From Spirochaetia bacterium (GTDB taxonomy: Bacteria; Spirochaetota; Spirochaetia; CADAEX01): DNA of 60,570 bases. Shown here piece after piece: positions 1-49,360 of this stretch. Position 1 is the stretch's first letter, and each line of letters opens with the position of its first letter. The stretch is from positions 1 to 60,570 of the forward strand of contig JAVEZE010000002.1 in the NCBI GenBank assembly GCA_034003145.1, written 5' to 3'. Below the pieces are notes generated by a model. That model did not search any database. It worked only from the letters and a program-made list of their open reading frames with translations, and was not told where the DNA came from. A program made the position numbers and the translations under genes.

Positions 1-1017
1 GCAGGCTGTCTGCTCCATGTGTGGAACCACAGCCTTTTTAAGTCATTGCTCTTTTTCGGGGCAGGCTCAGTGCTGCACAGAACCGGGACCAGAGAGATTG
101 ACAGGCTTGGCGGACTTTCAAAAGAGATGCCGTTGACAGCTTTTACTTTTTTGATAGGCGCAGCCGCAATCAGCGGGCTGCCTCCCCTAAACGGCTTTAT
201 CAGCGAATTTTTTATTTATCTCGGTTTTTTCAGATCTGCCGGATCGACTGAAAAACTGCTTTCCCTTTCTCTGCTTGCTGTTCCAGTCCTTGCCATGATA
301 GGCGCTCTGGCAGTTTCGTGTTTTGTTAAAGTCTATGGAGCGGTTTTTTCAGGCGCTCCCAGAACTGATGCTGCTGAAAACAGGATTGAGTCTCCCCCTA
401 CAATGGTTATTCCCATGGTTATTTTAAGTGTTTTTTGCCTTGTCATAGGGGTTTTTCCTGTACTTTCAGCACCTTTTCTTGAAAGAGCGATTGATGTCTG
501 GCAGGGTTTTAGCTATATGCCGGCTGCTATAACAGCAGTTTCACTTACCGCTTTGGTACCATTTGGCTGGCTCAGCGGAATAATGAGCGCTGTAATATTA
601 CTGTTTACTTTACTTTTTGTAATATTTTCAAGATATAAACGTAAAATGGAGCGAATTGAGGGAACCTGGGATTGCGGTTACGCGCAGCCGGATAAGCGGA
701 TGCAATATACTGCCGGATCCTTTGCCCGCTCTCTTACCGGGCTTTTCAGCTGGGTTTTAAAACCTCATGAAAACTTACCCCGGATAGCTGAAAGCTTTCC
801 CGCCGGCAGCTGCCTTGAAAGTCATGTAAGCGACCCGGTCCTTGACCAGGTATTGATTCCGGATTTCAATTTCCTGAGAAACAGGGCCCGATGGTTTTTC
901 CGTTTTCAGCAGGGGCAGACTCAATCTTATGTACTGTATCTGGTTGTTGCTTTGTGTGTTTTATTAGCCTCCATGATACCGTTTAAACAGTTGTTTATTG
1001 ATCTTTTTACAAAATAA
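1..1017 (+). CDS. HyfB/HycC-like (NuoL/Mrp antiporter-like) membrane subunit, 5' end off-window (partial)
   Basis: The frame is open from base 1. HSLFKSLLFFGAGSVLH and ISGLPPLNGFISEF resemble NuoL/HyfB motifs. The C-terminal W-CGY...MQYTAGSF extension is typical of hydrogenase-4 component B. Confidence 0.8.
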   Translation, partial: AGCLLHVWNHSLFKSLLFFGAGSVLHRTGTREIDRLGGLSKEMPLTAFTFLIGAAAISGLPPLNGFISEFFIYLGFFRSAGSTEKLLSLSLLAVPVLAMIGALAVSCFVKVYGAVFSGAPRTDAAENRIESPPTMVIPMVILSVFCLVIGVFPVLSAPFLERAIDVWQGFSYMPAAITAVSLTALVPFGWLSGIMSAVILLFTLLFVIFSRYKRKMERIEGTWDCGYAQPDKRMQYTAGSFARSLTGLFSWVLKPHENLPRIAESFPAGSCLESHVSDPVLDQVLIPDFNFLRNRARWFFRFQQGQTQSYVLYLVVALCVLLASMIPFKQLFIDLFTK

Positions 1018-1137
1018 TATCTTTCCATCTTCGGTAACAGCAAATCCGAAGGGAATCTGAAGGGAAGACAGGAGAAAAATCCTTTTATAAGGTGATTATC
1101 ACAGCGTTGCTGTTTTTTGGTATTTTGGGAGTTGTAC

Positions 1138-2046
1138 ATGGTTATAATAATTCATCTGCTGTTTTTATTGCTCTTTCCCCCTCTTCTTATAGGGGTTATC
1201 AACAAGACAAAAGCCCTTTTCGCGGGGCGGCGGGGAGCTCCGTTTCTGCAGCGGTACTTCGATATTTTCAAGCTTTTGAAAAAAGGGATGGTAATCAGTT
1301 CTGCCGCAACCTGGGTATTCCGCGCAGGGCCGGTAATAAGTCTTGTTACAGCTGCCGCGGCAGGCCTTTTTTTACCTATTGGAAAAATTCCTCCCCTGAT
1401 ATCGTTTCCTGGCGATTTTATTCTTTTCGCATATATGTTTGCCCTTTCCCGGTTTTTTACCACATCAGCCGCGCTTGATACCGGCTCAGCTTTTGAGGGG
1501 ATGGGTTCAGCCCGCGAGGTTACCTTTGCAGTGCTAATCGAACCAGCTTTGTTTTTTGTATTTCTGGTCCTTGCCCGTCTTTCCGGCTCATTTTCCCTGG
1601 AAGGAATGCTCTCATTGAGTGTAAAAAATATCTCTGCCATCGGAAATGCAGCTCCGCTTCTTTTGACTTCTGTCGGGCTTTTTATAGTTCTTTTAGCAGA
1701 AAACTGCCGGATACCGGTAGATGATCCCAATACCCATCTTGAGCTTACAATGATCCATGAAGTAATGGTGCTGGATCACAGCGGGCCGCTTCTTGGGCTT
1801 ATTGAGTATGGTTCTGCGGTAAAACTTTTTGTCACAGGGTCTTTATTGCTTAATCTCATACTTCCACTTCAGCTCCTTCCTGTCTGGACAGCAGCCCTTG
1901 TGCTGGCCGGGGGACTTCTTCTTTTGTCTTTTGTTATCGGGATGATAGAATCCATTATGGCAAGGCTCCGTATGCCCCGGGTTCCTGCCCTGCTTATCGC
2001 GTCGATCCTCCTGTGCGGATCTGCTTTTATAATGCTTGTGAGGTAA
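1138..2046 (+). CDS. HyfC/HycD-like (NuoH-like) membrane subunit
   Basis: Polytopic membrane ORF. The N-terminus LLIGVINKTKALFAGRRGAPFLQRY resembles HycD/NuoH. ATG at 1138 has GGGAG about 7 nt upstream (the track ORF starts at 1117). Confidence 0.8.
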   Translation: MVIIIHLLFLLLFPPLLIGVINKTKALFAGRRGAPFLQRYFDIFKLLKKGMVISSAATWVFRAGPVISLVTAAAAGLFLPIGKIPPLISFPGDFILFAYMFALSRFFTTSAALDTGSAFEGMGSAREVTFAVLIEPALFFVFLVLARLSGSFSLEGMLSLSVKNISAIGNAAPLLLTSVGLFIVLLAENCRIPVDDPNTHLELTMIHEVMVLDHSGPLLGLIEYGSAVKLFVTGSLLLNLILPLQLLPVWTAALVLAGGLLLLSFVIGMIESIMARLRMPRVPALLIASILLCGSAFIMLVR

Positions 2047-2049
2047 TAA

Positions 2050-2694
2050 ATGAATGATATTCTTAATGCATTGTTTGTAATTGTGCTTATTTTAAATCTT
2101 TTCGCCCTGGGAAGCAGCCGTATCCATTCTGTTATCAAAATTATAGCGGCCCAGGGAATACTTCTGGGGCTTTTTCCTCTTTTGGTGCATCCGGTAATAA
2201 CACTTCCTGAGATTGTTTCTTCATTGTCCGCTGTTTCACTGAAGGGTTTTATTATTCCTGCAATGATGATCAAGGCGATGCGGGATGTGAAGATTAAAAA
2301 AGAAGTGGAACCCCTTCTTGGCCTTTTGCTGTCAACAATTCTCGGAGCTCTTGTAACAGGAGCAGCGTTTCTGGTTTTCGCAAACACAGCTCCATCTGCA
2401 AACAATGGAGTTTCGCTGCTTATACCCACTTCAATATCCACGATTATCGCAGGTTTTATTATGCTTACCACCAGGGTAAAGGCTCTCTCTCAGGTTCTGG
2501 GATATTTGCTTCTGGAAAACGGTATTTATATTTTCAGTATGCTGCTTCTTGATGCTATTCCTCTGGTTGTTGAAACAGGAATGCTTCTTGACCTTTTTGT
2601 CAGTATTTTTATCATCTCAATTATTACCAACCACATCAACCAGGCGTTTTCATCACTTGATACCCGCAAACTTGCGGTGCTCAGGGAGGAGTAA
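2050..2694 (+). CDS. HyfE-like small membrane subunit
   Basis: 214-aa all-hydrophobic ORF at the HyfE position between the NuoH-like and antiporter-like genes, tightly packed (4-nt gaps). Confidence 0.6.
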   Translation: MNDILNALFVIVLILNLFALGSSRIHSVIKIIAAQGILLGLFPLLVHPVITLPEIVSSLSAVSLKGFIIPAMMIKAMRDVKIKKEVEPLLGLLLSTILGALVTGAAFLVFANTAPSANNGVSLLIPTSISTIIAGFIMLTTRVKALSQVLGYLLLENGIYIFSMLLLDAIPLVVETGMLLDLFVSIFIISIITNHINQAFSSLDTRKLAVLREE

Positions 2695-2697
2695 GAA

Positions 2698-4131
2698 ATG
2701 GCAGTGATACTTATTGTTTTTCCAATTGCTGCGGCACTGATTGCCCTGATTTATCCATGGAATGGCAGCCGTCCGGTTTTATTACCCCTGTCCGGAGTCC
2801 TCCATTCTGTAATTACTGTAATAGTTCTCCTTCGCCCTGAATATAGAAATTATAGTTCATGGTTTGTTCTTGATCCTCCGGCCGCGATAATTCTGCTGAC
2901 AGTCTCGATTCTGTATCTTCTCTCCTCTTTTTATGCGGTCGGATATCTCCGCTACCGGCCTGACCGGTCAAACCGGGTTTTTACCGCAAGTTTTTCAGCT
3001 TTCCTGGGACTGATCAGCATGGCTATCTGGTCTCATAATCTTGGACTCATGTGGGTAGCGATTGAAGGGACAGTTCTGGTAACTGCTCCGCTTATTTACT
3101 TTAACCACTCTCCCCGAAGTATTGAAGCGACATGGAAGTATCTGCTGGTTGGTTCAGTAGGTATCGCCATGGCTCTTCTGGGTACTTTATTTCTTGCATA
3201 CTCTCTTGTCCAGGGAGGTAAAGAACCTTCCCTTGATTTGATAACTCTATCTTCCAATGCGGCTTTTATGTCTCCACTGTGGCTTCGATCCGCGTTTATT
3301 CTTTTTCTGGTAGGATACGGAACAAAAATGGGGCTGGCTCCAATGCATACCTGGAAACCTGATGCCTATGGAGAGGCACCTGGAGTTGTAGGGGCGATTT
3401 TTTCCGGAGGAGTTACCAGCGGCGCTTTTCTGGCCCTTTTGAGGATCTATCAGATTACAAACGCGGCAGGGCAGGGTGCTTTTACCTCAAGGCTGATGAT
3501 TTTTATTGGACTTTTTTCCATGGCAACAGCAGGAATTTTCATGATAAACCAGCGGGACTTCAAAAGGATGCTTGCTTACTCCAGTGTCGAGCACATGGGA
3601 ATAATAACGCTTGGGGTGGGAATCGGTGGAATTGCCCTGTGGGGGGCGCTTCTGCATGTAATTATGAATGCCATGACAAAAGGGGTTCTTTTCCTCTCGG
3701 CAGCCAATATCCACCGTGCTTTTAAATATAAAAGCACAGACCTTGTACAGGGTGCTTTCAGCCGTATCCCTTTATCAGCCGGCCTTTTCCTTGCCGGGTT
3801 TTTTGCCATAACCGGTGCTCCCCCATTTGGCCCTTTTGTCAGTGAATTCACAATTTTAAACGGCGCATTTTTATCCGGCCGCTTCCTGAGCGGCTCCCTC
3901 TATCTGATTTTTCTGTTGGCTGTTTTTATTGGAATGGGTATTACTGTTTTAAAGGTAGTACAGGGAAAGCCGCCGGAGGATGCTGATAACAGTGATTTTA
4001 ACGAAAGCATATTGACAACCCTTCCTGTTATCCTGTTTCTGGTAATTGTTGTTTTTCTGGGTGTTTATCTCCCTCCATTTTTGCGTGATATGCTGAGTCA
4101 GGCAGTTGAATTTTTGGGGAATGCGATATGA
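2698..4131 (+). CDS. HyfF-like (NuoN/NuoM antiporter-like) membrane subunit
   Basis: 477-aa polytopic ORF. GYGTKMGLAPMHTWKPDAYGEAP and SSVEHMGII are characteristic of NuoM/N/HyfF proton-pumping subunits. It overlaps the next gene by 4 nt. Confidence 0.8.
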   Translation: MAVILIVFPIAAALIALIYPWNGSRPVLLPLSGVLHSVITVIVLLRPEYRNYSSWFVLDPPAAIILLTVSILYLLSSFYAVGYLRYRPDRSNRVFTASFSAFLGLISMAIWSHNLGLMWVAIEGTVLVTAPLIYFNHSPRSIEATWKYLLVGSVGIAMALLGTLFLAYSLVQGGKEPSLDLITLSSNAAFMSPLWLRSAFILFLVGYGTKMGLAPMHTWKPDAYGEAPGVVGAIFSGGVTSGAFLALLRIYQITNAAGQGAFTSRLMIFIGLFSMATAGIFMINQRDFKRMLAYSSVEHMGIITLGVGIGGIALWGALLHVIMNAMTKGVLFLSAANIHRAFKYKSTDLVQGAFSRIPLSAGLFLAGFFAITGAPPFGPFVSEFTILNGAFLSGRFLSGSLYLIFLLAVFIGMGITVLKVVQGKPPEDADNSDFNESILTTLPVILFLVIVVFLGVYLPPFLRDMLSQAVEFLGNAI

Positions 4132-5639
4132 AAAAAATTATCAATGGCAACTCGATACCACTCTCTTCCATCCCTTTAATGGAATTTGATGAATTTTCCA
4201 GCTCCATAATAAAGGAAACTGCTTCCGGCAAACGGATAAGCTCTTATTTTGGAGTTCAGGCCGGCAAAAAAGGGCAGACTGATCTATTTGTCATTCTTTC
4301 TGATGATAAACAGAATCAATTGACTGCAGCAAAGTCTGTTATCAATGGGACTTCATTCCCTTCCATTACTCCAAAATGTCCCCAGGCCCATCTTTTTGAG
4401 AGAGAGATTTCAGAACAGTTCGGCCTGAAAGCACAAGGCCACCCATGGTTTAAACCTGTCTGTTTTACTTCTTCCTGGACAGGTGTGGATGCATGGGGCC
4501 GTTCTGATGATGATTTAATACTGCCTGCGGTCGGGGATTTTTACCGTGTAGAAGGGGAGCAGGTTCATGAGGTTGCGGTAGGCCCGGTGCATGCCGGTGT
4601 TATTGAACCCGGGCATTTCAGGTTTCAGTGTTATGGAGAAGAGGTTTATCATCTTGAAATTGCGCTGGGCTTCCAGCACAGGGGAGTGGAAAAAGCACTC
4701 ATTGGGGGGCCAAACTCAAGAACACTCCATTATATGGAGACACTGGCAGGAGATACCACTGTAGGGCACACAACCAGTTACTGCCAGATAGCGGAGGCGC
4801 TGTCACAGACCCAAATATCACCCCGCGCCCAGGCGCTAAGAGGCATTGCACTTGAACTTGAGAGGCTTGCCAACCATATCGGCGATCTTGGAGCGCTTTC
4901 CGGGGATGTAGGGTATCTGCCGACTGCCAGTTTTTGCGGGCGGATAAGAGGCGAACTGCTTAATATGACTGCTGTTTTATGCGGCAGCCGCTTTGGCCGC
5001 GGAATGGTCCGCCCCGGCGGGACTGGTTTTGACGCGGAACCTGATAGGGTTGCGGATCTCCTTAAGCGGCTTGCCATAAACGAAAAAGAGGCGCGGGATG
5101 CCATTAACCTGCTCTGGGAAAACCAGTCAGTCCTTGCCCGTTTTGAGGATACCGGAGCTCTTTCCATGGAAAAAGCAGTAGAGCTGGGGATAGTCGGCCC
5201 TCCCGCGCGGGCTGCAGGGCTTAGCCGTGATATCAGATCTACCCATCCTTCAGGTATATTCAAGTTTGCCCAGATTCCGGTATCAACATGTGATTCGGGA
5301 GATGTTTTTGCCCGCGCTTATGTAAGGTGGATGGAAATCGGGCACTCATTTTCCTTTATCCGCAATCAGCTTGATTCCCTTCCTTCAGGCCCTGTCCTGA
5401 CTCAGCCCGGGCAGTTGGCTCCGGAGAGTCTTGCGGTATCGCTTAATGAAGGATGGCGGGGTGAAATATGCCATGTGGGAATTACTGATGATAAAGGTTT
5501 GTTTGTAAGGTACAAGGTAACTGATCCTTCCTTTCATAACTGGATTGCCCTTGCCCAGGTACTGAGAAATCAGGAAATATCTGATTTCCCCCTTTGCAAC
5601 AAGAGCTTTAACCTGTCCTATTGCGGACATGATCTGTAA
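4128..5639 (+). CDS. NuoC-NuoD / HycE-like 'large subunit' lacking the NiFe cysteine ligands
   Basis: VGPVHAGVIEPGHFRF and LGFQHRGVEK are group-4 hydrogenase/NuoD signatures. The N-terminal CxxC position reads ETLAGDTTVGH (4737-4769). The C-terminus reads DFPLCNKSFNLSYCGHDL instead of DPCxxCxxR/H. Confidence 0.85.
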   Translation: MKKIINGNSIPLSSIPLMEFDEFSSSIIKETASGKRISSYFGVQAGKKGQTDLFVILSDDKQNQLTAAKSVINGTSFPSITPKCPQAHLFEREISEQFGLKAQGHPWFKPVCFTSSWTGVDAWGRSDDDLILPAVGDFYRVEGEQVHEVAVGPVHAGVIEPGHFRFQCYGEEVYHLEIALGFQHRGVEKALIGGPNSRTLHYMETLAGDTTVGHTTSYCQIAEALSQTQISPRAQALRGIALELERLANHIGDLGALSGDVGYLPTASFCGRIRGELLNMTAVLCGSRFGRGMVRPGGTGFDAEPDRVADLLKRLAINEKEARDAINLLWENQSVLARFEDTGALSMEKAVELGIVGPPARAAGLSRDIRSTHPSGIFKFAQIPVSTCDSGDVFARAYVRWMEIGHSFSFIRNQLDSLPSGPVLTQPGQLAPESLAVSLNEGWRGEICHVGITDDKGLFVRYKVTDPSFHNWIALAQVLRNQEISDFPLCNKSFNLSYCGHDL

Positions 5640-5654
5640 ATTGAGGAAAGAAAA

Positions 5655-6428
5655 ATGTACAAGGAAATATTGACCCGGATAAAACAGGGACACAAAACCA
5701 TAAAATTCCCTAAGGGAAATCCTCCTGCTCTGCCTGACAGGCTGAGGGGGCTTCCCCATATATCTTCAGATAAGTGCAGCCCAATGTGCAGAGTCTGCTC
5801 AGATGCCTGCGGCGTAAATGCCATAGACCTTCAGACAAAAACAATTGATATGGGAAAATGTCTTTTTTGTACAGACTGTATTGAAGCCTGCCCTGCCGGC
5901 GCTATTGAGCTGACCTGTGATTACCGCCTTTCTGTCAGAAACAGGGAAGATTTACTTGTCAGGATGGATGAAAATGAAATTAAACTGGCAGCGGAAATGG
6001 GAAGGGAAATGAAAAAACTTTTCAGCCGTTCATTTAAATTGCGTGTGGTCAGCGCCGGAGGGTGTAACGCATGTGAGGCTGACGTAAATGTATTGACCAC
6101 AATCGGGTGGGACCTGGGGCGTTTCGGGATCAATTATGTTGCATCCCCAAGACATGCTGATGGTATTCTGGTTACAGGCCCTGTAACAAAAAATATGGAA
6201 CTTGCCCTGAAGAAAACCTATGATGCTGTCCCTGATCCCAAAGTAGTCATTGCTGTCGGGGCCTGCGCAATAGCGGGCGGCCCTTATGCAGGGCATCTTG
6301 AGGTTTTAGGCGGCGCTGATGCCATGATTCCTGTAGATCTTTATATCCCGGGATGCCCCCCTCACCCCCTTACTATTCTTGATGGTCTTCTGCGGCTTAT
6401 TGGAAAAATTAAAACAGACAGTCGCTGA
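5655..6428 (+). CDS. Fusion of a 2x[4Fe-4S] ferredoxin (HyfH/NuoI-like) with a NuoB/HycG-like small subunit
   Basis: N-terminal half has CSPMCRVCSDAC and CLFCTDCIEACP. C-terminal half has GGCNACE...GACAIAGGPY...IPGCPPHP, i.e. NuoB/HycG-type [4Fe-4S] ligands. Confidence 0.8.
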   Translation: MYKEILTRIKQGHKTIKFPKGNPPALPDRLRGLPHISSDKCSPMCRVCSDACGVNAIDLQTKTIDMGKCLFCTDCIEACPAGAIELTCDYRLSVRNREDLLVRMDENEIKLAAEMGREMKKLFSRSFKLRVVSAGGCNACEADVNVLTTIGWDLGRFGINYVASPRHADGILVTGPVTKNMELALKKTYDAVPDPKVVIAVGACAIAGGPYAGHLEVLGGADAMIPVDLYIPGCPPHPLTILDGLLRLIGKIKTDSR

Positions 6429-6501: not shown

Positions 6502-6622
6502 CCTTCGTTCCGGCAACATCCTGCTGCCGGACTCAGGCCGCCTCAGTCGCTGACGCCGACCTCCTGTCGGCTTTTCCTCCCGCCGGTCGGCGCTCCTTTG
6601 GTTCGAATCCTTTCTGTTAGAC

Positions 6623-6662
6623 AAAAAAAAGAGACCGCCCTGTGGGCAATCTCTTTTTTTTT
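6623..6662. terminator. Bidirectional rho-independent terminator
   Basis: A8 - AGAGACCGCCC tgt GGGCAATCTCT - T9. It can serve both the plus-strand operon and the minus-strand tRNA pair. Confidence 0.7.
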
Positions 6663-6735
6663 ACGTCCAAGAGGATTCGAACCTCTGACCCTCGCCTTAG
6701 AAGGGCGATGCTCTATCCAGCTGAGCTATGGACGC
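6662..6735 (-). tRNA. tRNA-Arg (anticodon TCT)
   Basis: Hand-folded cloverleaf from the reverse complement GCGTCCATAGCTCAGCTGGATAGAGCA TCGCC CTTCTAA GGCGA ... GGTTCGAATCC ... TGGACGTA. No CCA is encoded. Confidence 0.85.
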
Positions 6736-6740
6736 GCGAG

Positions 6741-6813
6741 TCGGGATAGAAGGACTCGAACCTTCGATCTCCTGCTCCCAAAGCAGGCGCCTTAGCCACT
6801 AGGCTACATCCCG
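6741..6813 (-). tRNA. tRNA-Pro (anticodon TGG)
   Basis: Reverse complement CGGGATGTAGCCTAGTGGCTAAGGCG CCTGC TTTGGGA GCAGG ... GGTTCGAGTCC ... TATCCCGA folds as a 73-nt cloverleaf. Confidence 0.85.
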
Positions 6814-6871: not shown

Positions 6872-7516
6872 TTGAATATGAAGCAGACTGAGCTTGTATA
6901 TCTGGCAAATGAAATATTCACTCTTCTTGATTCAAATTATCCTGATAAAATAGAGTTTCTCCATTACCGAAGCAGCTTCGAGCTATTAATTTCTGTTATA
7001 CTTTCAGCTCAAACTACAGACCGCCAGGTAATGGAGGTTGCTCCTGTACTTTTCAGCAAATATCCCGGGCCAAAAGAGCTGTCTGAGGGAAACCTTGATG
7101 ATATAATGGAGATAATCAGGTCTACAGGTTTTTACCAGGTTAAAGCGAAAAATATCAAAAACACTGCCTTAATGCTGGTTAAGGATTTCAATGGAGAGGT
7201 GCCTGATACAATGGAAAAACTTGTATTGCTTCCCGGGGTCGGGCGGAAAAGCGCCAATGTTATTATGGGAGGGGTATTTGGAAAACCTGCAGTAATTGTT
7301 GATACGCACTTTGCCCGTGTCGTAAAAAGAATTGGCCTTACAGAACAAAAAGAGCCTGAAAAAATAGAAAAAGAGATTGCCTTGATTATTGAAAATAAAA
7401 AACAGTACCGGTTTTCCATGACAGTTAATCTCCATGGTAGGAGAACATGCCATGCCCGCAAGCCATTGTGCCCAAGCTGTTTTTTAAGCCATCTGTGCAA
7501 AAGTGCTTTTAAATAA
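6872..7516 (+). CDS. nth: Endonuclease III (DNA glycosylase/AP lyase)
   Basis: LISVILSAQTTDRQV, helix-hairpin-helix LPGVGRKSANVI, and the C-terminal [4Fe-4S] motif CHARKPLCPSCFLSHLC. Confidence 0.9.
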   Translation: MNMKQTELVYLANEIFTLLDSNYPDKIEFLHYRSSFELLISVILSAQTTDRQVMEVAPVLFSKYPGPKELSEGNLDDIMEIIRSTGFYQVKAKNIKNTALMLVKDFNGEVPDTMEKLVLLPGVGRKSANVIMGGVFGKPAVIVDTHFARVVKRIGLTEQKEPEKIEKEIALIIENKKQYRFSMTVNLHGRRTCHARKPLCPSCFLSHLCKSAFK

Positions 7517-7564: not shown

Positions 7565-8008
7565 TTATTCTGAAAGTATTTTTTCCCATACATCATCAGT
7601 CATTCCTGACTCAGAAAGGTGTTTGTTAACAAATTCTGATAAGTTTTTAAGCCTCAATGCTGTATCAATTGATATTGTATGTTCAATCTCGCATGCTGTA
7701 CTGTCTGATTCTGCTTTTGATAGCCTCAGGACAGATTGAAGAAAATCATTGATTATATCGTGTTTTTTTCGTACAGTCGATGCAATCTTTTTCCCTTTAT
7801 CTGTGAGGGAAATAAATGAATTTTTTTCATAGTTGATAAGGCTGCGCTCTCTCAGGTTTTTCAGGGCAGAGGTTACAGAAGACATTTGCACATTCAGCAG
7901 GGCTGCAATATCTTTTACCCGTGCTACCCTGTTTTTTGATTCAAGAATGAGTATGGCTTCGAGGTAGTCTTCAAGACTGGTTGATAGTTTTGTTTGATTG
8001 CTATCCAT
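7565..8008 (-). CDS. DtxR/MntR-family metal-dependent transcriptional repressor
   Basis: LEDYLEAILILESKNRVARVKDIAALLNVQMSSVTSALKNL is a typical DtxR-type winged-helix N-terminus. ATG at 8008 is preferred over 8026. Confidence 0.7.
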   Translation of the reverse strand: MDSNQTKLSTSLEDYLEAILILESKNRVARVKDIAALLNVQMSSVTSALKNLRERSLINYEKNSFISLTDKGKKIASTVRKKHDIINDFLQSVLRLSKAESDSTACEIEHTISIDTALRLKNLSEFVNKHLSESGMTDDVWEKILSE

Positions 8009-8208
8009 GATAATATAAAAATACATCAGTCAGGGTATATTTGCAACAAGGAAAAAAACACAGGGGAAAAAAGATCCCACTATCCATGTTGTCTTAAAAA
8101 AATGGCTGCAACTATTTTTTTTCAGATTTATTTTATATAATTATTGTACTATAGATAGTATAATTTAAAATGTTTTTGCTAAAAGTATATTAAAAAGAAG
8201 GTGAAAAA

Positions 8209-9891
8209 TTGAATTCAAGGGAAAATCATGACTTTGAAAGTTTTGATGAACTAAAATCTTTCTACATTAACAATTTGCCTCTTAATATTGAAAATATTAA
8301 TGATAAATTTGAACTGGTACTGCTCTCCGGGATAGATAAGAAAAAAGCCTCAGAGTTGAGGGCTGATATTCACAAGCTGGCAGGTTCAGCAGGCAGTTTC
8401 GGCTTCGAAGCCATAAGCGCATTACTAAAGAAGGTTGATCAATACTTTGCCGGATATATTGAGAATGAGACAGCTGATAATATTTTTGATATTGATTATG
8501 TAAAAAAGGCAATTAAAGAAGTGCAGGTTTTACTTACAGGAGTCAATAACCCCTCTGCGGTCAGAAATAACTATTCAGTTACAGCTCTGCCTGTAACACA
8601 TGGAAGGATGTTTGAAAAAATTCCTGCCTCCTGGGATAAAAAACTTGTTATCTGCAATCCTGAAAATCAGAAATACCTGGAAGAACTTAAAGGGAAACTC
8701 GCCTATTTCGGATATCAGGTTGAATATTTTACAGACAAAGATAAAGCAGTTGAATATCTTGAAAATGAGACAATTTACCTCGCTCTGATTGATATTGACT
8801 GTCTTCAAAAAAATCCTGCATCAGGGACAAGGCTTGTTAATATGAAAGAAAAACGGGGATGTACAAAATTTATTTATACATCAGCCCATAACGATTTTTT
8901 AACACGCCTTTTCGCGCTCAAAAGCGGGGGTGATGCTTTTTTCGAAAGCCCGATAAATATCATAAAACTGGTTGATAAAATCGAGTTTTTTGCAGACAGC
9001 AGAAGGATAAAGCCGGATCATGTCCTGATTATTGATGATGATATGGATACCCTTTCCTATTATGCGCATCTTTTTCAAAAGTACGGAATGATAACATCTG
9101 TAACTTCTGACCCCTATTCAGCTTTTGACCTTATTATTGAAGCCTCTCCGGACCTTGTTTTTATTGACATGCTTATGCCAGGGTGCAACGGCATTGAGCT
9201 TGCCTCTGTCATCAGGCAGCATGAAGAATTTGTTTCAACTCCCATTATCCTTTATTCAGCATTTGACAAACCTTCTACAATTGATAGCAATGTTCCATTT
9301 TCAGGTGATGAATTTATAAATAAATCTGTAAATGATGAAATACTTGTGAACATTGTCGCAAACAGGATATACAGATCAAAAAGCTTAAGGCATTTTATGG
9401 AAAGGGATTCGCTGACAGGGCTGCTTAATCATACAAACCTGAATGACAACTTCTACAGAGAGCTTCTGCGCTCAAACCGAATGAATCTTCCGTTAAGCTA
9501 CGCAATGATAGATCTTGATAATTTTAAATCTGTAAATGATAAGTACGGACATCTTGTCGGCGACACTATACTTAAAAGCCTTGCCTATATGCTGATTGAA
9601 AGACTCAGAACCACTGATATCATAGGACGTTACGGCGGGGAGGAGTTTGTGGTTATTTTAAATAATACCTCGCCTGTAAACGCTAAAAAAGTCATGGATG
9701 GAATAAGAGTCAATTTCAGCAATATTTCTCACCACGCGAAAGGAGAGGAGTTTCATGTGACTTTCAGCTGCGGCATAGCAGGCTATCCTGATCTTTCCCT
9801 TGCTGAAACAATCTCTGAAGCAGCAGACAAAGCACTTTATGCGGCAAAAAAACAGGGAAAAAACAGGGTTATTATATATGGTGATGAATAA
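8209..9891 (+). CDS. HPt - (degenerate REC) - REC - GGDEF diguanylate cyclase response regulator
   Basis: HPt motif HKLAGSAGSFGF. The second receiver has VLIIDDD...VFIDMLMPG. The GGDEF domain has RYGGEEF and an upstream DNFKSVND motif. TTG start with a GAAGGTG RBS. Confidence 0.8.
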   Translation: MNSRENHDFESFDELKSFYINNLPLNIENINDKFELVLLSGIDKKKASELRADIHKLAGSAGSFGFEAISALLKKVDQYFAGYIENETADNIFDIDYVKKAIKEVQVLLTGVNNPSAVRNNYSVTALPVTHGRMFEKIPASWDKKLVICNPENQKYLEELKGKLAYFGYQVEYFTDKDKAVEYLENETIYLALIDIDCLQKNPASGTRLVNMKEKRGCTKFIYTSAHNDFLTRLFALKSGGDAFFESPINIIKLVDKIEFFADSRRIKPDHVLIIDDDMDTLSYYAHLFQKYGMITSVTSDPYSAFDLIIEASPDLVFIDMLMPGCNGIELASVIRQHEEFVSTPIILYSAFDKPSTIDSNVPFSGDEFINKSVNDEILVNIVANRIYRSKSLRHFMERDSLTGLLNHTNLNDNFYRELLRSNRMNLPLSYAMIDLDNFKSVNDKYGHLVGDTILKSLAYMLIERLRTTDIIGRYGGEEFVVILNNTSPVNAKKVMDGIRVNFSNISHHAKGEEFHVTFSCGIAGYPDLSLAETISEAADKALYAAKKQGKNRVIIYGDE

Positions 9892-11596
9892 AACTCTATT
9901 TGCGTCTGTTATAATAATTTTAAATATTTATTTGGTATCCTGTGAAAACACTGATGGGGTTTTTTACGGAAAACTTAAAACTAACGGTGAACATGAGGAA
10001 ACAGCCCTGCGTTTAGAAAAAAACAGTGATGATAAATCAGATTATTATAAATTCAAAAAGCCATACAGATTGGAAAACAGGAGCCATCCTGTTTTCTTAA
10101 AAGCTGAAATACCGGAAATCACGGGAACTCATTTTTTTACTATGCATTTGGCAGAAGCTCCTCCCCGCAGTATTGAATTTACTTCGGATGAACCTTCGAA
10201 AGCTCTTCTTTTTTTTACTGTAAAGGAATCCTTATCTATTGAGGGTTTTTCAATTACACAATCTTCCGAAGTGACAGGGCCGGAGAAAAGCCTGGCAGAA
10301 GGTACCAAAGATATTTCCCCTCTCCTTAAAGTATGGATAATAAGCAGTACTGAGTATTTTGAAGGATATAAAAAAGAAAAGGGAATCTTATATCAGAGTG
10401 AGAATTTCCGAAGAACAGCGGATGCGAAGAATGAAATTTTTGCTTTTAATGTAAAAAACAGCTTCAGTGACAAAAATCCTGACAAAATTACAATCAGTCT
10501 TGAAAACAGGGCTTTATCCCGTCATGATGATAATAAAGTGCTGCTTGATTTTTACTCAAAAGATAATAACAAAAGTGTAAAAATATTTCCTGTTAAAGAT
10601 ATTATTAACATAACTTCGGCTGACCTTGATGCGATATTCCATGTTGTGCCGGATAAGATAAGATTTTCAGTTTCTCCCTTAATTGAAAGATCAGTGCCTG
10701 AAGTAAATGCAGTTTCAGTTTTCCGCTTTTCAGGCGGCAAATCTCATCCCCTCCATACAGCAATAGAAGCAGATTTTAATTCCATGCTTGATTACGGCAT
10801 GGAAAACTGGAGAAATGAAAACTATGAAATATTTTCCTGGTCAGTTTTTCCTGAATTCCTGCTGATTGATACAATTGATTACAGGTTCCAGAATGCGATG
10901 TTTAAAAGGCTTGCCTTTTTCGTGGAAAAACCAGGGACAGCAGGGACTCTTCTTACAGACAGTGAAATGGAAAAACTTCATGGATGGAATGCACACGATT
11001 ACAGAGCAGAGGATTTGAGCGATTTTTTTAATCTGGCTGAAAAAACCGGTTTTATCCTGTCTGACGAAGAAGAACTGCTTAAATTATTGCTGCTTGAAAA
11101 CAATGCAATAAGGAAAACAACAGGCACTGAATTTCAGCCTGCAGGGGGCGGTATACTTTCCATATCTCGTGAGTCAAGCTCCTTTCTGCGTAAAGTGTTT
11201 ATCTCTCATGAGGGATATCATGGAGTCTTTTTTTCTTCAAAAGAATTCAGGGAAAAATGCGAATCAATATGGGACCAGGCTTCTGACGAGGTGAAAACTT
11301 TCTGGAAAATATTTCTTGCCCATAAATACTATGATATTACCAACAAGTACCTTGTTGTAAATGAATTCATGGCTTACAACCTGCAGCAGACACCGGAGAA
11401 GGGCAAGGAATATTTTTTTGAGTATATAATTCCCGCCCTTCTGGATAATTATCCTTCGCGGAAAGAGCTGCTTGAGAATATCAAAGAAAATTACAGGGAG
11501 GAATTTTTTGAAATAAGCGGTAAACTTGCCGATGCCCTGTATGAGACAACAGCTCTTCCTCCGGGCAATCTTCTGTTTATTGAAACCAGCCCCTGA
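9878..11596 (+). CDS. Hypothetical lipoprotein with an HEXXH motif
   Basis: MVMNKTLFASVIIILNIYLVSC has a lipobox (LVSC). HEGYH lies at 11207-11221. ATG 9878 overlaps the GGDEF gene stop (9889-9891). The upstream part of track ORF 9800 lies in another frame inside the GGDEF gene. Confidence 0.65.
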   Translation: MVMNKTLFASVIIILNIYLVSCENTDGVFYGKLKTNGEHEETALRLEKNSDDKSDYYKFKKPYRLENRSHPVFLKAEIPEITGTHFFTMHLAEAPPRSIEFTSDEPSKALLFFTVKESLSIEGFSITQSSEVTGPEKSLAEGTKDISPLLKVWIISSTEYFEGYKKEKGILYQSENFRRTADAKNEIFAFNVKNSFSDKNPDKITISLENRALSRHDDNKVLLDFYSKDNNKSVKIFPVKDIINITSADLDAIFHVVPDKIRFSVSPLIERSVPEVNAVSVFRFSGGKSHPLHTAIEADFNSMLDYGMENWRNENYEIFSWSVFPEFLLIDTIDYRFQNAMFKRLAFFVEKPGTAGTLLTDSEMEKLHGWNAHDYRAEDLSDFFNLAEKTGFILSDEEELLKLLLLENNAIRKTTGTEFQPAGGGILSISRESSSFLRKVFISHEGYHGVFFSSKEFREKCESIWDQASDEVKTFWKIFLAHKYYDITNKYLVVNEFMAYNLQQTPEKGKEYFFEYIIPALLDNYPSRKELLENIKENYREEFFEISGKLADALYETTALPPGNLLFIETSP

Positions 11597-23477: not shown

Positions 23478-24170
23478 TCAGGTTTGAGTTCCGATAAAAA
23501 GGCTGATTCTTTTTACTGCTCCATAAAGCTTGTTACTGGTTTTTTTAAGGTATGGTATTTCCGCCTCAAGCTCCATAATATCGAAAAACTGATCTGATGA
23601 ACCGGAATATTCTCCTTCATCTTCCCATTCCTTTTCCTGAATCAGCTTTTCAATTTTTACCGCAAGAGGGTTAGCCTCTTTTGCCGCATCCGAAAGAAGC
23701 TGCTTGACCGAGGCAAGGAAAACAATCTCTTTTTCACCGCAGCAGGAAGAGGCAGTGTTTTTTTCAATAATATCAAGAGATAACTTCGCATACTCACCCG
23801 CAGCCCTGATTACTGAAACCTCTTTTTTAAGTATTTGAAAATCCGTATCTGTACTGTACCCTGAGTAAAAATAAAGCGAGTTTTCTCTGTTTATTTCCTT
23901 TATAATTTCAAGTATTTCTTTATCAGTTGTTTTCTTTTTGGCAAGTGATTCCATATCCTTAATAGCATTTGCCCTGATAGACGGGGTAAATATATCTTCT
24001 GCGCTGAGAGGTATTGAATCAGGGCCCATGCCAACTTGGGGTATTAAATGGGAACAAGACATTACAAACAGGCAGCAAATAATTAAGACATGATAAATCC
24101 TGTATGCTGATGTGAAATGATTTTTATCAGTTTTCCATGAAAAATGAGTCAAACCTGATCCCTTCTCCAT
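23478..24170 (-). CDS. Hypothetical protein, possible lipoprotein
   Basis: LIICCLFVMSC is a lipobox-like segment. I recognise no family. The N-terminus overlaps the upstream gene by 44 nt, so the true start is unclear. Confidence 0.4.
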   Translation of the reverse strand: MEKGSGLTHFSWKTDKNHFTSAYRIYHVLIICCLFVMSCSHLIPQVGMGPDSIPLSAEDIFTPSIRANAIKDMESLAKKKTTDKEILEIIKEINRENSLYFYSGYSTDTDFQILKKEVSVIRAAGEYAKLSLDIIEKNTASSCCGEKEIVFLASVKQLLSDAAKEANPLAVKIEKLIQEKEWEDEGEYSGSSDQFFDIMELEAEIPYLKKTSNKLYGAVKRISLFIGTQT

Positions 24171-27828: not shown

Positions 27829-28932
27829 TTGATGAGGAAAATAATTATAATCAGCTTTATTCTGTTGTTTGTCGCAGGCGGGTTGTTTGCGGTGGAAGTG
27901 ACTGCGACTGCTCCTACAATTTCTGGTTTTGGTGGGTATGATTTTTCTTTTGTACAGGATGAATTGGACGCTAACTTAATACCTCTTGCTGTAGATGCTG
28001 TAGATCAGTTTGATAAAATGAATGATCTTGCAAGAGGTTTCTCAAACGCAAACTCATACGCAGCAGATGCCGCGACTACAAGAGGGCTGATGGGATACAA
28101 ATTCCTCTCCATCGCTGTCGGTACAATGGCAGGAGTGCAGATGCCGAGCAACAGCGTGGATGCTTTAAATGATACTGTCGCAAACATAGAAAATGAAGGC
28201 GATATATATTTCGGCGCAGGTTTCCAGGCCTTAACTGTAAGTGTAGGCATTAATGCAGGATTTCTCATGGACGGGCTTTACCTTACAGGAAAGATAGGAA
28301 AATTTTCTACAGAGACTGATGAAATAAACTATGACTCATTTGTGTTCGGACTTCTTGCCAATTACCAGCTGGTAGACCCTTTTTCACTTGGAATAATCAA
28401 ATGGAGAGGTCTGCAGGTGGGAAGCGGTATAATATATTACAAGACTGTTGCTGAAATGACGCTTGAAGTTGAGCCGGTTTCAGAAGCTGTTGATCCAGAT
28501 GCTGGAGGCCCTCAGCCCTCTATAAATTTATATCTTGATCCTACAATTGTCGCAGAGATAACTTCTTCCGGATTCAAGATACCGGTAGACCTTATAACAG
28601 GGATAAGGCTGTTCTGGATAGCAAACCTCTCATTCGGCCTCGGCTTTGACATGAACTTTGCAGGAAATTCTGAAATAGCGCTTAAAGCTGACGGAACAAC
28701 ATATTTTGATGAGGCAGATATTGCAGCTATTCCAGGCGCAACTCAAACACCCGGTTCTGTAAAAGTTAAAGGCGGCACCAAAGGGGACGGGGCAGATTTC
28801 TTCCGCTTAAGAGCTATGGCAGGGATAGGCTTCGGACTCGGCCCGCTAAAGTTAGATATACCGTTTACTTATTACTTTGACGGAACAGGGCTTGGAACAA
28901 ATATAGGCATCACAGGGGCGTTGACCCTTTAA
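27829..28932 (+). CDS. Secreted beta-barrel-like hypothetical protein (tandem paralog 1)
   Basis: Signal peptide MRKIIIISFILLFVAGGLFA/VEV, alternating hydrophobic beta-strand pattern, and C-terminus GITGALTL. Confidence 0.65.
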   Translation: MMRKIIIISFILLFVAGGLFAVEVTATAPTISGFGGYDFSFVQDELDANLIPLAVDAVDQFDKMNDLARGFSNANSYAADAATTRGLMGYKFLSIAVGTMAGVQMPSNSVDALNDTVANIENEGDIYFGAGFQALTVSVGINAGFLMDGLYLTGKIGKFSTETDEINYDSFVFGLLANYQLVDPFSLGIIKWRGLQVGSGIIYYKTVAEMTLEVEPVSEAVDPDAGGPQPSINLYLDPTIVAEITSSGFKIPVDLITGIRLFWIANLSFGLGFDMNFAGNSEIALKADGTTYFDEADIAAIPGATQTPGSVKVKGGTKGDGADFFRLRAMAGIGFGLGPLKLDIPFTYYFDGTGLGTNIGITGALTL

Positions 28933-29049: not shown

Positions 29050-30171
29050 ATGAGAAAAATAATTATTCTTGCTTTTATTCTGATGCTTATTGCAGGCAGC
29101 CTCCCTGCGGTTGAGGTAACTGCTGAATTCCCGGGCATTATGTATAATGGGACTCTTCTGCCGAAACCTTCATTCGGAGATCCGCGCGATGCTGCTCTGC
29201 AGGAAGCAATTAGCGGTACAGAAGAGGCGCTTCGAAAATTTGATAGTATGAATAATCTTGCCAGGGGCTTTTCTAACGCAAACTCATATGCCTCAGATGC
29301 TGCTACAACAAGAGGGCTTATGGGATACAAATTCCTCACAATAGCAGTCGGTACCATGGCTTCCCTCCAGATGCCGGGCAGATTCGTAAATACTTTTAAC
29401 GATAGTCTTTCATCCATAGCTAAAGAGGGAGATCTTTATTTCGGCGCAGGTTTCCATGCTCTTACTTTAAGTGTAGGAGTTAACGCCGGTTTTCTTGCTG
29501 ACGGACTTTACCTTACCGGAAAGATAGGAAAATTCTCCTCTGACATAGAAGATCTAAAGTATGATTCCTTTGTTTTTGGTTTGCTTGCCAGCTATCAGCT
29601 TGTTGACCCTTTTTCAATCGGGATTCTAAAATGGAGAGGGCTGCAGGCAGGAAGCGGAATTGTATATTATGAATCAGTTTCCATAACAACCTTTGAAGTT
29701 GAGTCTGTTTCTGCCCCTGTTGAATTTGACCCTGATGGGGCAGGGCCGTCAGGTCTTATTGAGACAACCCTTTACCTTGACCCTACAGTTACAGCAAAAA
29801 TAAAATCTTCCGGATTCAAGATCCCTTTTGAACTGATAACAGGGATAAGGGTTTTCTGGATAGCAAACCTATCGTTCGGCCTTGGCGTTGATATGAACTT
29901 TGCAGGGAAATCTGAAATCGCGCTTAAAGCAGACGGTGAAACCTCTTTGGGTGAGGAGCTCTCCGCAATTGAAGGGGTAACTGTTACCCCCGGCAATATT
30001 AATGTCAAAAGCAGCACTAAAAGCAACGGAGCAGATTTCCTCCGCTTCAGGGCAATGGCTGGCATAGGTTTTGGGCTGGGCCCTTTAAAGATCGATATAC
30101 CGGTTTCATATTACTTTGACGGGAGCGGGTTTGGGACAAACCTCGGTATAACAGGGGCGCTAACCCTTTAA
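29050..30171 (+). CDS. Secreted beta-barrel-like hypothetical protein (tandem paralog 2)
   Basis: Collinear with 27829-28932 (LARGFSNANSYA.DAATTRGLMGYKF, LYLTGKIGKFS, WIANLSFGLG, GITGALTL), with its own signal peptide. Confidence 0.65.
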   Translation: MRKIIILAFILMLIAGSLPAVEVTAEFPGIMYNGTLLPKPSFGDPRDAALQEAISGTEEALRKFDSMNNLARGFSNANSYASDAATTRGLMGYKFLTIAVGTMASLQMPGRFVNTFNDSLSSIAKEGDLYFGAGFHALTLSVGVNAGFLADGLYLTGKIGKFSSDIEDLKYDSFVFGLLASYQLVDPFSIGILKWRGLQAGSGIVYYESVSITTFEVESVSAPVEFDPDGAGPSGLIETTLYLDPTVTAKIKSSGFKIPFELITGIRVFWIANLSFGLGVDMNFAGKSEIALKADGETSLGEELSAIEGVTVTPGNINVKSSTKSNGADFLRFRAMAGIGFGLGPLKIDIPVSYYFDGSGFGTNLGITGALTL

Positions 30172-37558: not shown

Positions 37559-37576
37559 TAAAGGGGAGAGGTAATA

Positions 37577-37951
37577 ATGAATATAGAATCGTATAGTTAT
37601 ACAGTTTTGGCAAGTATTGTCGGGATGGGGATTGTTTTTGCATTTCTGGCATTTCTTTCCCTTTTAATGGTTGTAATAAATAGAATATTTGACGGGAAAG
37701 ATCAGGGAGTTGCTGTTAAAACCAGTTCTGCAAAAAACAACGCAGCTGCGGGTGCCAAAGCCAATGGTGTATCAACAGGAAATGGAAAAGAGGCAGAGGA
37801 TAATACCTGGATAATAGCTGCTGTTGCCGCATTCCTTGAAGAAGAGGATATGCCTGTAAGTGCTGTGGCATGGCAGCCTGCCGGAGATGAAAAACTTGAT
37901 CCCTGGGTTTCTGCGCCAGGTGGGCACAGACAGGCAGTGAGAGTTTTTTAA
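37577..37951 (+). CDS. OadG-family small membrane subunit of the Na+-translocating decarboxylase
   Basis: Single N-terminal TM (VLASIVGMGIVFAFLAFLSLLMVVI) followed by an Ala-rich linker, in the operon position of MmdD/OadG. Confidence 0.7.
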   Translation: MNIESYSYTVLASIVGMGIVFAFLAFLSLLMVVINRIFDGKDQGVAVKTSSAKNNAAAGAKANGVSTGNGKEAEDNTWIIAAVAAFLEEEDMPVSAVAWQPAGDEKLDPWVSAPGGHRQAVRVF

Positions 37952-38029
37952 TACAGGGCACGATAATTTGAAATTACTTATGGTATTTAAGATTTAAAGC
38001 AAAGTCCACTTGATAAACGGAGAATATAT

Positions 38030-38464
38030 ATGAAAAAAAATTTGAAATTTGAACTGGCTGGAAAAAAATACAGCGTCGATGTAGAGAGGCAGGGTGATTC
38101 TCTTGTAATTGAAAATGAAGGAAAGACTGTCACTGTTAACCTTCTTGAAGGAGAGAAAAAAGCTGCAAGGCCTAAACCAAGACCTGCTGCCGCATCTCCT
38201 GTTGCTGCGGCACCTGCACCTGCGCCTGCTGCAGCATCTGCCTCTGGAAGCGCGGGAGACATAAAAGCTCCTATGACAGGAACAATTAAGGAAATAAAGG
38301 TTTCCAAAGGAGACAAGGTTGAAGCAGATCAGCTTGTTGTAATTATGGAAGCAATGAAAATGGATATTGAGGTTTTTGCACATATATCCGGTACAGTTGC
38401 TGATATTTATCTTGCGCCGGGAAGCAGTGTCAAGGAAAATCAGCCTGTTGTTAAACTGGCTTAA
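38030..38464 (+). CDS. Biotin carboxyl carrier subunit
   Basis: Ala/Pro-rich linker, then a biotinyl domain with the EAMKM biotinylation motif. Confidence 0.85.
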   Translation: MKKNLKFELAGKKYSVDVERQGDSLVIENEGKTVTVNLLEGEKKAARPKPRPAAASPVAAAPAPAPAAASASGSAGDIKAPMTGTIKEIKVSKGDKVEADQLVVIMEAMKMDIEVFAHISGTVADIYLAPGSSVKENQPVVKLA

Positions 38465-38474
38465 GGGGGAATAA

Positions 38475-49011: not shown

Positions 49012-49083
49012 AGCGGGAGACGAGGCTTGAACTCGCGACGTCCACCTTGGCAAGGTGGCGCTCTACCACTGAGCTACTCCCGC
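49012..49083 (-). tRNA. tRNA-Gly (anticodon GCC)
   Basis: Reverse complement GCGGGAGTAGCTCAGTGGTAGAGCG CCACC TTGCCAA GGTGG ... TTCAAGC ... CTCCCGCT folds as a 72-nt cloverleaf. Confidence 0.85.
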
Positions 49084-49110
49084 AGATAAATCATTTCCTT
49101 CCCTGCTTAT

Positions 49111-49348: not shown

Positions 49349-49360
49349 CAATTAAAAACA

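Follow-up and report, generated by a model that had tools for sequence, protein, structure and literature searches.

A probable Ehr-type membrane complex with replaced nickel-ligand motifs on a Spirochaetia contig

The contig JAVEZE010000002.1 of a Spirochaetia bacterium (GenBank assembly GCA_034003145.1), analysed here over its entire 60,570 bp and referred to as the window, opens with an operon of six co-directional open reading frames (ORFs; 1-6428, plus strand), in which the ORF list, Pfam and NCBIfam recognise a complex-I-like, Hyf-like set of subunits. The product of the operon is probably a complex-I-like membrane complex of six subunits, of the energy-converting hydrogenase-related (Ehr) kind, that works in the way proposed below, and it is very probably of Ehr type and not a [NiFe]-hydrogenase. 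In three papers (PMC6349859, PMC10284858, PMC10432482) Ehr complexes are defined by a homologue of the group-4 hydrogenase large subunit and NuoD that lacks the NiFe-binding cysteines. The operon encodes such a subunit, together with a small subunit bearing NuoB-like ligands and with NuoH-like and Mrp/NuoL-M-N-like subunits, and, as is typical of the Ehr type, it comprises no NADH or formate input module. It shares with the group-4 [NiFe]-hydrogenases a homologous subunit set (large, small, HycF-like, NuoH-like, and antiporter-like), while their L1 motif CGxCxxxH, their L2 motif DPCxxCxx[HR], and their C-terminal extension are all missing. The placement of the operon in an Ehr-like class without H2 chemistry at a NiFe site, made in the initial annotation, is supported, since every tested feature of Ehr is present, and the operon is an ordinary member of this known and widespread family. 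Its components are as follows:

1-1017, plus strand: ehrA, a hyfB-like gene for a NuoL-type antiporter-like subunit, 3' part of 338 codons, with the frame open at the contig edge
1117-2046, plus strand: ehrB, a hyfC-like gene for a NuoH-type membrane subunit of 309 amino acids (aa; Pfam NADHdh, 1.8e-30)
2050-2694, plus strand: ehrC, a hyfE-like gene for a small membrane subunit of 214 aa (NCBIfam PRK11492, hydrogenase 4 membrane subunit)
2698-4131, plus strand: ehrD, a hyfF-like gene for a NuoM/N-type antiporter-like subunit of 477 aa (NCBIfam hydrogenase 4 subunit F, 2.6e-88)
4128-5639, plus strand: ehrL, coding for a NuoC-NuoD fusion, the HycE-like large subunit of 503 aa (Pfam Complex1_30kDa and Complex1_49kDa)
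4737-4769, plus strand: within ehrL, the replacement of the L1 nickel motif, E204-T-L-A207-G-D209-T210-T-V-G-H214, aligned to HycE D-R-V-C241-G-I-C244-G-F-A-H
5577-5636, plus strand: within ehrL, the replacement of the L2 nickel motif and the C-terminus, ISDFPLC490NKSFNLS497YC499G500H501DL503 (HycE C531 to S, C534 to G)
5655-6428, plus strand: ehrS, coding for a HycF/NuoI-type ferredoxin domain fused to a NuoB domain, 257 aa (Pfam Fer4 and Oxidored_q6)
5655-6029, plus strand: N-terminal HycF/HyfH/NuoI-type 2x[4Fe-4S] module of ehrS (NCBIfam formate hydrogenlyase Fe-S subunit, 2.1e-18, and NuoI)
6030-6428, plus strand: C-terminal NuoB/HycG-type [4Fe-4S] module of ehrS (Pfam Oxidored_q6, 1.5e-26)

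The nickel-ligand columns and the iron-sulfur chain

The loss of the nickel ligands was assessed in a MAFFT alignment of the window EhrL with 79 relatives and with HycE, HyfG, and NuoCD of E. coli K-12, an alignment of the kind the initial annotation had called for; counts for family columns below refer to these 80 Ehr sequences. All four Ni-ligand columns are occupied by residues other than Cys in EhrL: HycE C241, C244, C531, and C534 correspond to A207, T210, S497, and G500. In agreement with this, phmmer pairs HycE RVCGICGFAH with ETLAGDTTVGH and DPCYSCTDR with NLSYCGHDL, and, since both programs give the same four columns, the hand alignment behind the original claim was not shifted. The replacement of R-x-C-G-x-C-x3-H and of the C-terminal DPCxxCxxR/H motif thus stands as first described, including the positions of Ala (4746-4748, residue 207) and Thr (4755-4757, residue 210), which are exact, and the group-4 signatures quoted at the time are present as written. 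In a phmmer search of all PDB chains the best match of EhrL is E. coli HycE (7z0s_E, 1.6e-44, 155.8 bits), followed at lower scores by MbhL (120 bits), Nqo4 of T. thermophilus (106), and MbsL (71.5), and it is this bit-score ranking that places EhrL among group-4 and complex I proteins.

The substitutions are a property of the family, as the Ni-ligand loss is common to about 80 relatives from at least ten phyla. The first L1 Cys column is occupied by Ala in 69 members, Ser in nine, and Cys in two, the second by Thr in 74, Ser in five, and Ala in one, while in L2 the C531 and C534 columns hold Ser and Gly, respectively, each in 79 of the 80. The consensus motifs ETLAGDT[TS][IV]GH and, at the carboxyl end, ISDFPLCNKSFNLSYCGHDL-COOH are near-invariant; E204, G208, D209, and H214 are found in every member, and within the last 20 residues C490 is kept in 75, C499 in 79, and H501 in 70. 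Both cysteines lie close to the lost ligands, C499 one residue ahead of the fourth column and C490 seven residues ahead of the third. The final residue of EhrL aligns with HycE R537, which closes the DPCxxCxxR motif and which we take to be the HycI cleavage site; no C-terminal extension follows. A query made of the 64 C-terminal residues of EhrL retrieved 392 cluster representatives (50% identity level, E<=1e-10) from among 1.84 billion proteins, and nearly all these matches fall at the C-terminus of the matching protein itself. To judge from the aligned sequences, the nickel site is not merely decayed and is replaced by a new set of motifs that is equally conserved.

The surroundings of the pocket retain a hydrogenase-type character. 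EhrL keeps the second-sphere residues Glu160, in the beta1-beta2 loop (IEPGHFRF), and Arg444 (WRGE), whereas NuoCD has a different beta1-beta2 loop and Lys instead of Arg. Tyr87 and His38 (T. thermophilus Nqo4 numbering), the quinone head-group ligands of complex I, are not conserved, being replaced in the phmmer and MAFFT alignments by the invariant Gly208 and by Ile159, respectively. An AlphaFold2 model of EhrL (predicted template modelling score 0.85) has as its best Foldseek match the same HycE chain, 7z0s_E (TM-score 0.82), followed by E. coli NuoCD.

The small subunit EhrS keeps all 12 of its Fe-S cysteines and encodes a three-cluster Fe-S chain in a single protein. The ferredoxin-type cysteines 41, 45, 48, 52, 69, 72, 75, and 79 recur in at least 74 of 76 members, and C137, C140, C204, and C234, which align with the cluster cysteines of HycG/HyfI, in at least 72 of 76, so that the four [4Fe-4S] cysteines ascribed earlier to the NuoB-like module are all accounted for. 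The first ferredoxin motif (residues 41-52, window 5775-5810) reads CX3CX2CX3C, with the extra residue kept family-wide, whereas that of HycF, HyfH, and NuoI is the canonical CX2CX2CX3C. Among the membrane subunits, EhrD retains Glu of transmembrane helix (TM) 5, Lys of TM7, and Glu of TM12, its TM8 Lys being replaced as in E. coli HyfF; the HyfB-like subunits additionally keep the TM8 Lys, as does E. coli HyfB, and the TM12 Glu is present in the ehrA fragment of the window. The charged residues predicted to serve ion coupling are intact, and conservation within the Ehr complex is highest in the peripheral arm.

Known relatives, distribution, and genetic neighbourhood

The name Ehr originates from the GSU0739-45 cluster of Geobacter (EhrA-1 to EhrL and EhrS), all subunits of which have been detected by proteomics and found to be more abundant on formate (PMC7894505). 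Compared by names only, this complex (ehrA-1, A-2, B, C, D, L, and S) has the same subunit set in the same order as the window operon, i.e. NuoL-like, NuoH-like, HyfE-like, NuoM/N-like, large, and small, and its large subunit likewise lacks the NiFe cysteines (PMC7894505). Ehr operons have further been described in Margulisbacteria and Melainabacteria, with one clade including spirochaetes (PMC6349859), in Nitrospira (PMC10284858), in ammonia-oxidising archaea (PMC10432482), in Methylacidiphilum (PMC6688271), and in M. tuberculosis (PMC6728331). Each of these reports gives their function as unknown, as papers up to 2026 still do (PMC10432482, PMC10284858, PMC13194489). The statement in the initial annotation that no substrate had been demonstrated agrees with these Ehr papers and needs qualifying only for the related Hyq of Azorhizobium, whose genetic and physiological data have been taken to show that H2 is oxidised and evolved (PMC2650096, PMC3357923). 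Within the related loci described below, the gene order is conserved; the Geobacter complex of G. sulfurreducens (GSU0739-45) is reportedly the one treated by Coppi in 2005 and by Marreiros et al. in 2013.

The hyqRBCEFGI operon of Azorhizobium is held to encode a reversible 'endo-hydrogenase' on the basis of mutant physiology, no purified enzyme having been described (PMC2650096, PMC3357923), and Degli Esposti groups ehr and hyq as group-4 subtypes without NiFe ligands (PMC4758237). The Hyq sequences compared here are those of a rhizobial plasmid hyq operon. The structural genes follow the identical order B-C-E-F-G-I, and HyqG has 504 residues to the 503 of EhrL (PMC3357923); its replacement motifs are alike, with SGDS in place of CGxC and DFPLCNKSFNCSYSGHDL at the C-terminus. 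HyqG is nevertheless only about 35% identical to EhrL, compared to 52-78% inside the window's own family, has Ser at the position of C499 with a Cys two residues earlier, and has Tyr at that of H214. The rhizobial HyqI is a NuoB-only protein of 177 aa that lacks the ferredoxin-like domain of EhrS, and the hyq operon is controlled by NifA and sigma-54, HyqR being a small helix-turn-helix (HTH) protein. The window operon is therefore a member of Ehr and a sibling of Hyq, not a Hyq member. Tandem paralogous operons of the Ehr type also occur, in L015 (12294-20970), L040 (12522-20020), and L085, a Variovorax plasmid (3968-11252 and 14664 onwards; locus numbers are our own); their large subunits are 37-42% identical to the window EhrL, and the pocket of the second copy varies, that of L015 having no Cys at 490 or 499.

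E. coli Hyf/Hyc provides the closest solved structure and the closest curated models for every subunit, and the window order follows hyfB-C-(D)-E-F-G-H-I, with the HyfH and HyfI equivalents fused into a single protein. In common with the Hyf/Hyc type, EhrL has the beta1-beta2 loop EPGHFR and the PRGD/WRGE Arg, and EhrS has the CxxC, but the operon lacks the NiFe ligands, the C-terminal extension, HyfA/HycB, HyfD, HyfJ/HycH, HycI, FdhF, and hyp. More distant are MBH and MBS (Mbx) of Pyrococcus (PDB 6cfw and 6u8y), ferredoxin-driven, Mrp-related ion-translocating relatives that differ in their weaker similarity to EhrL (120 and 71.5 bits, against 156 for HycE) and in a larger, other Mrp-type membrane set; MBS sets a precedent, being descended from group 4 but no longer producing H2. 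The cyanobacterial NDH-1MS (CupA/CupS) and DabAB, in which a complex-I-like engine or a NuoL-like subunit is coupled to vectorial CO2 hydration, are functional analogies only, and bear on a reading in terms of inorganic carbon.

More than 8000 database proteins match EhrL at E<=1e-10, and the best 120 of them, from several phyla, are 64-78% identical to it. The 80 related loci were taken from GTDB species genomes, and neighbour counts cover 10 kb on either side of each. With EhrL proteins 52-78% identical, they come from Spirochaetota, several orders of Planctomycetota, Verrucomicrobiota, Kiritimatiellae, Lentisphaerae, Acidobacteriota, Myxococcota, Desulfobacterota (Smithella, Desulfobacteraceae), Binatia, Omnitrophota, Riflebacteria, Hydrogenedentes, and Fraserbacteria. 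The gene order (R)-B-(B)-C-E-F-G-HI, where R stands for a regulator gene, is conserved among them, except that in some Planctomycetales G-HI is separated from a divergent B-C-E-F block. The closest relative, L001, is a Spirochaetia metagenome-assembled genome (OY759746.1) with an EhrL 78% and an EhrB 81% identical to those of the window, and it is syntenic downstream of the operon. Between the two, the ratio of nonsynonymous to synonymous substitution rates (dN/dS) is 0.08-0.16 for all six genes; because of this and of the conservation, the operon is judged to be under purifying selection and not a relic.

The order and identity of the genes as first annotated (HyfB-, NuoH-, HyfE-, HyfF-, and NuoCD/HycE-like, then a ferredoxin-NuoB fusion) are borne out by Pfam and NCBIfam, although the match of EhrC to PRK11492 (6.4e-20) lies under the family cut-off. 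Their tight coupling was claimed as well, and it is seen at four junctions (3 bp, 3 bp, a 4-bp overlap, and 15 bp) but not between the hyfB- and hyfC-like genes, which are 99 bp apart. Since the window is the whole contig and its edge cuts ehrA, the 5' part of the operon is absent; what is left of EhrA matches Pfam Proton_antipo_M and positions 340-666 of the 669 in the NCBIfam profile for hydrogenase 4 subunit B. Two HyfB/EhrA-like genes precede the NuoH-like gene in L001 (2848-7010), L002, L003, and L006, as in Geobacter, whereas in the window a single one stands directly before ehrB. This fragment is the orthologue of the first HyfB-like gene of L001 (73% identity, against 42% to the second), so the second EhrA copy appears to be missing, the NuoH-like gene directly abutting the orthologue of the first.

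The accessory genes of hydrogenases and of complete complex I are not part of this neighbourhood. No homologue of HypA-F, HycI, HycH, FdhF, NuoE/F/G, or NuoA/J/K lies within 10 kb of the 80 loci, the Nuo proteins having been sought by phmmer with the E. coli sequences in the operon and in the 80 loci. Hyp, HycI, HycH, and FdhF have no homologue anywhere in the window, while NuoA, NuoJ, NuoK, and NuoEFG have no match in its operon, the NuoE/F-like genes of the window being situated in a distant [FeFe]-hydrogenase operon. The earlier observation that no hyp or formate dehydrogenase genes follow the operon, and that tRNA genes and nth do, is hence valid across the 60.6-kb window. A partnership between formate dehydrogenase and Ehr has been hypothesised (PMC6349859); as a general rule it is unsupported, in view of the absence of FdhF and NuoE/F/G within 10 kb of the 80 operons.

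The most frequent neighbour is a regulator gene coding for a protein of about 230 aa with HTH_17 and PTS_EIIA_2 domains (e.g. L001 2187-2879), present in 50 of the 63 loci whose upstream region could be judged and lying directly upstream of ehrA or ehrL in 47 of them. At least 90% of 45 members retain the phospho-acceptor His of the EIIA domain (AIPH), and in the split planctomycete arrangements the gene stays with ehrL-ehrS, which suggests that the Ehr operon is under the control of a phosphorelay resembling the nitrogen-related phosphotransferase system, PTS(Ntr). EIIA(Ntr)-type domains control K+ and ion homeostasis in proteobacteria. In the window an equivalent gene would fall beyond the contig start. 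Rhizobial HyqR was considered as a counterpart of this regulator and rejected, the two proteins proving unrelated on comparison.

Genes for DabA, SulP, or beta-carbonic anhydrase abut Ehr in 18 of the 80 loci, at a median distance of 190 bp from the nearest Ehr gene: DabA with the NuoL-like DabB in seven, a SulP-STAS transporter in 12, and a beta-carbonic anhydrase in three, one of them from Myxococcota. Among the 18 are L073 (1701-12921), L053, L075, L064, L065, L041, L046; L036, L048, L021, L003; L042, L054, and L067. In several planctomycete loci DabA-DabB lies directly 3' of ehrS, and L073 and L053 display one co-directional string R-EhrL-EhrS-DabA-DabB-NuoM-like-SulP, which L075 shares up to the NuoM-like gene. 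These associations hint at a link of Ehr to inorganic carbon or pH; the 18 loci are mostly from Planctomycetota and phylogenetically non-independent, and neither the window nor L001 or L002 has a DabA, SulP, or carbonic anhydrase gene as a neighbour.

Proposed working and competing explanations

In the working proposed for the complex, a low-potential donor, most likely reduced ferredoxin, would dock on the exposed HycF/NuoI-like 2x[4Fe-4S] domain, as in Ech and Mbh. Electrons would pass to the NuoB-type [4Fe-4S] cluster, whose ligands are present, and then reach a pocket between the large, small, and NuoH-like subunits, devoid of a NiFe site and lined in the family by a conserved polar set (D209, T210, H214, R444, C490, N491, K492, S493, S497, Y498, C499, H501, and D502). 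Reduction or protonation of an acceptor there may drive the translocation of H+ or Na+ via the NuoH-like and the two antiporter-like subunits, and the reaction may also run backwards. Ferredoxin input together with ion translocation is, on this analogy, slightly favoured over other arrangements. It is plausible that this host maintains a ferredoxin pool and can make use of an additional ion pump, because its gene set is that of a fermenter (acetate kinase, Na+-decarboxylase, [FeFe]-hydrogenases).

Several observations weigh against such a working. In the wider family, comprising rhizobial HyqG, Variovorax, and the second operons of L015 and L040, only G-D-[ST] and NKSF..SY.G.D are universal, and C490, C499, H214, and E204 vary across Hyq and the paralogous second operons; the universal set, as far as its residues tell, does not resemble a classical metal or redox site. 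The elaborate path of electron input is not universal there either, because the Hyq small subunit has no ferredoxin-like domain. The AlphaFold2 confidence (predicted local distance difference test) is below 50 at the pocket, i.e. at residues 132-162, which include the beta1-beta2 loop, and 486-503, and therefore no spatial inference was drawn from the model. Finally, the donor is proposed only by analogy.

The data on Hyq raise the question of whether the complex could be a real hydrogenase with an unconventional, cysteine-poor site that couples H2/H+ to ferredoxin or quinone. While fixing N2, Azorhizobium ceases to recycle H2 only when both hup and hyq are mutated, and H2 evolution was seen at <1 uM O2 (PMC2650096, PMC3357923); the rhizobial HyqG carries the same replacement motifs, and Glu160 (IEPGHF), Arg444 (WRGE), and His214 are kept as hydrogenase-type second-sphere residues. 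We consider such an enzyme highly unlikely, as all four Ni ligands are gone in 78-80 of the 80 members, no hyp or protease genes stand beside the loci, and there is no C-terminal extension to process; moreover, M. tuberculosis retains its EHR operon without hyp genes (PMC6728331), the evidence on Hyq is whole-cell and genetic only, and the window organism is already equipped with two [FeFe]-hydrogenases. A minimal complex-I-type ferredoxin:quinone oxidoreductase, similar to Fpo or photosynthetic NDH-1, which would pump ions and use the pocket for menaquinone reduction, is unlikely as well. The set of NuoB, NuoCD, NuoH, and antiporter-like subunits does have the architecture of the complex I core, Hyq has been proposed to be a quinone reductase (PMC3357923), and many hosts, e.g. 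Planctomycetota and Myxococcota, are respiratory; however, the Tyr87 and His38 positions are not conserved, the beta1-beta2 loop is of the hydrogenase type, NuoA, NuoJ, and NuoK homologues were not detected in the operon or the 80 loci, and the host looks fermentative. To our knowledge, spirochaetes of this type usually lack quinones.

The neighbouring genes give rise to another explanation, in which the complex is an ion, pH, or inorganic-carbon device, that is, a cation/proton translocator gated or powered by redox reactions, in which the Fe-S chain serves as a motor or sensor and which would energise or partner the uptake of CO2/HCO3- (DabAB, SulP, carbonic anhydrase). The 18 loci with such genes, some in co-directional strings, the PTS-EIIA(Ntr)-type domain of the conserved regulator, and the pH-homeostasis role suggested for the Methylacidiphilum Ehr (PMC6688271) are consistent with it, but it is quite unlikely, the association being confined to a minority of mostly planctomycete, non-independent loci and absent from the window, L001, and L002, and the strict conservation of 12 Fe-S ligands being left unexplained unless electron flow powers the process. 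In a bolder and very unlikely version, the NiFe pocket would have been rebuilt in this clade as a catalytic or sensing site (Cys490, Cys499, His501/His214, Asp209/Asp502), likened to the Cys-Cys-His-Asp zinc ligands of beta-carbonic anhydrases and DabA, in a ferredoxin-powered, regulator-switched engine of carbon or proton/bicarbonate homeostasis. If true, Ehr with its rebuilt pocket would be the heterotroph counterpart of the CO2-hydrating NDH-1MS of cyanobacteria. A 2026 paper assumes the Ehr of Geobacter to be non-functional and under relaxed selection (PMC13194489), and the window operon could by extension be a decaying hydrogenase relic; we give this next to no credence and reject the pseudogene reading on account of dN/dS and conservation, all ORFs being intact, dN/dS being 0.08-0.16 in the six genes, the EhrL proteins of different phyla sharing 52-78% identity and a near-invariant stretch of 20 C-terminal residues, and all Geobacter Ehr subunits having been found as proteins (PMC7894505).

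Ehr complexes are among the most widespread relatives of complex I without an assigned reaction, their carriers ranging from Geobacter, Nitrospira, and ammonia-oxidising archaea to M. tuberculosis, planctomycetes, and spirochaetes. The window adds one more member, which will not surprise a specialist, and its value lies in family-level clues from the comparison: constrained replacement motifs that can be mutated, a conserved peripheral arm, the HTH-PTS-EIIA regulator, and carbon genes next to about a fifth of the loci. These clues suggest testable conditions (carbon/nitrogen balance, inorganic carbon, and pH) and tractable hosts.

Host energetics and the rest of the contig

Two [FeFe]-hydrogenase genes (56075-57847, plus strand, and 58039-59856, minus strand) lie in a region spanning 52249-59856 and also 59808-60461. 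The operon of the first also includes a gene for a NuoE-like 2Fe-2S protein (52249-52857) and one for a 1074-aa fusion protein (52858-56082), in which a NuoF-like FMN/4Fe-4S module is joined to a GltD/NfnB-like pyridine-nucleotide-disulphide oxidoreductase; the resulting enzyme resembles a hydrogenase that is electron-bifurcating or linked to NAD(P)H, its fused flavoprotein being unusual. H2 metabolism is presumably covered by these [FeFe]-hydrogenases, encoded 46 kb away from the Ehr operon. A carboxyltransferase gene (36008-37558) and one for an OAD_beta Na+-pumping subunit (38475-39590) make up a Na+-translocating decarboxylase (region 36008-39590), with acetate kinase encoded 3' of them (40530-41741), a gene content that points to a fermenter with sodium-based energetics.

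The operon itself may end at the following element:

6555-6580, plus strand: weak terminator-like hairpin about 130 bp past ehrS, a possible operon end (consensus scan)

The scan found one such hairpin where 0.6 were expected and gives no evidence of function. Further downstream are tRNA-Arg and tRNA-Pro (6662-6813, minus strand) and nth (6872-7516). Four ORFs of the window have no Pfam match at E<=1e-5 (9800-11596, 598 aa; 23478-24170, 230 aa; 27829-28932, 367 aa; and 29050-30171, 373 aa), and a cluster of five tRNA genes, Gly-GCC, Leu-TAG, Lys-CTT, Arg-TCG, and His-GTG, is located on the minus strand at 49012-49517. Past nth (7565-9891) a DtxR-family metal-dependent repressor, on the minus strand, and an Hpt-REC-GGDEF diguanylate cyclase are encoded, both of which are also found 3' of the operon in L001.

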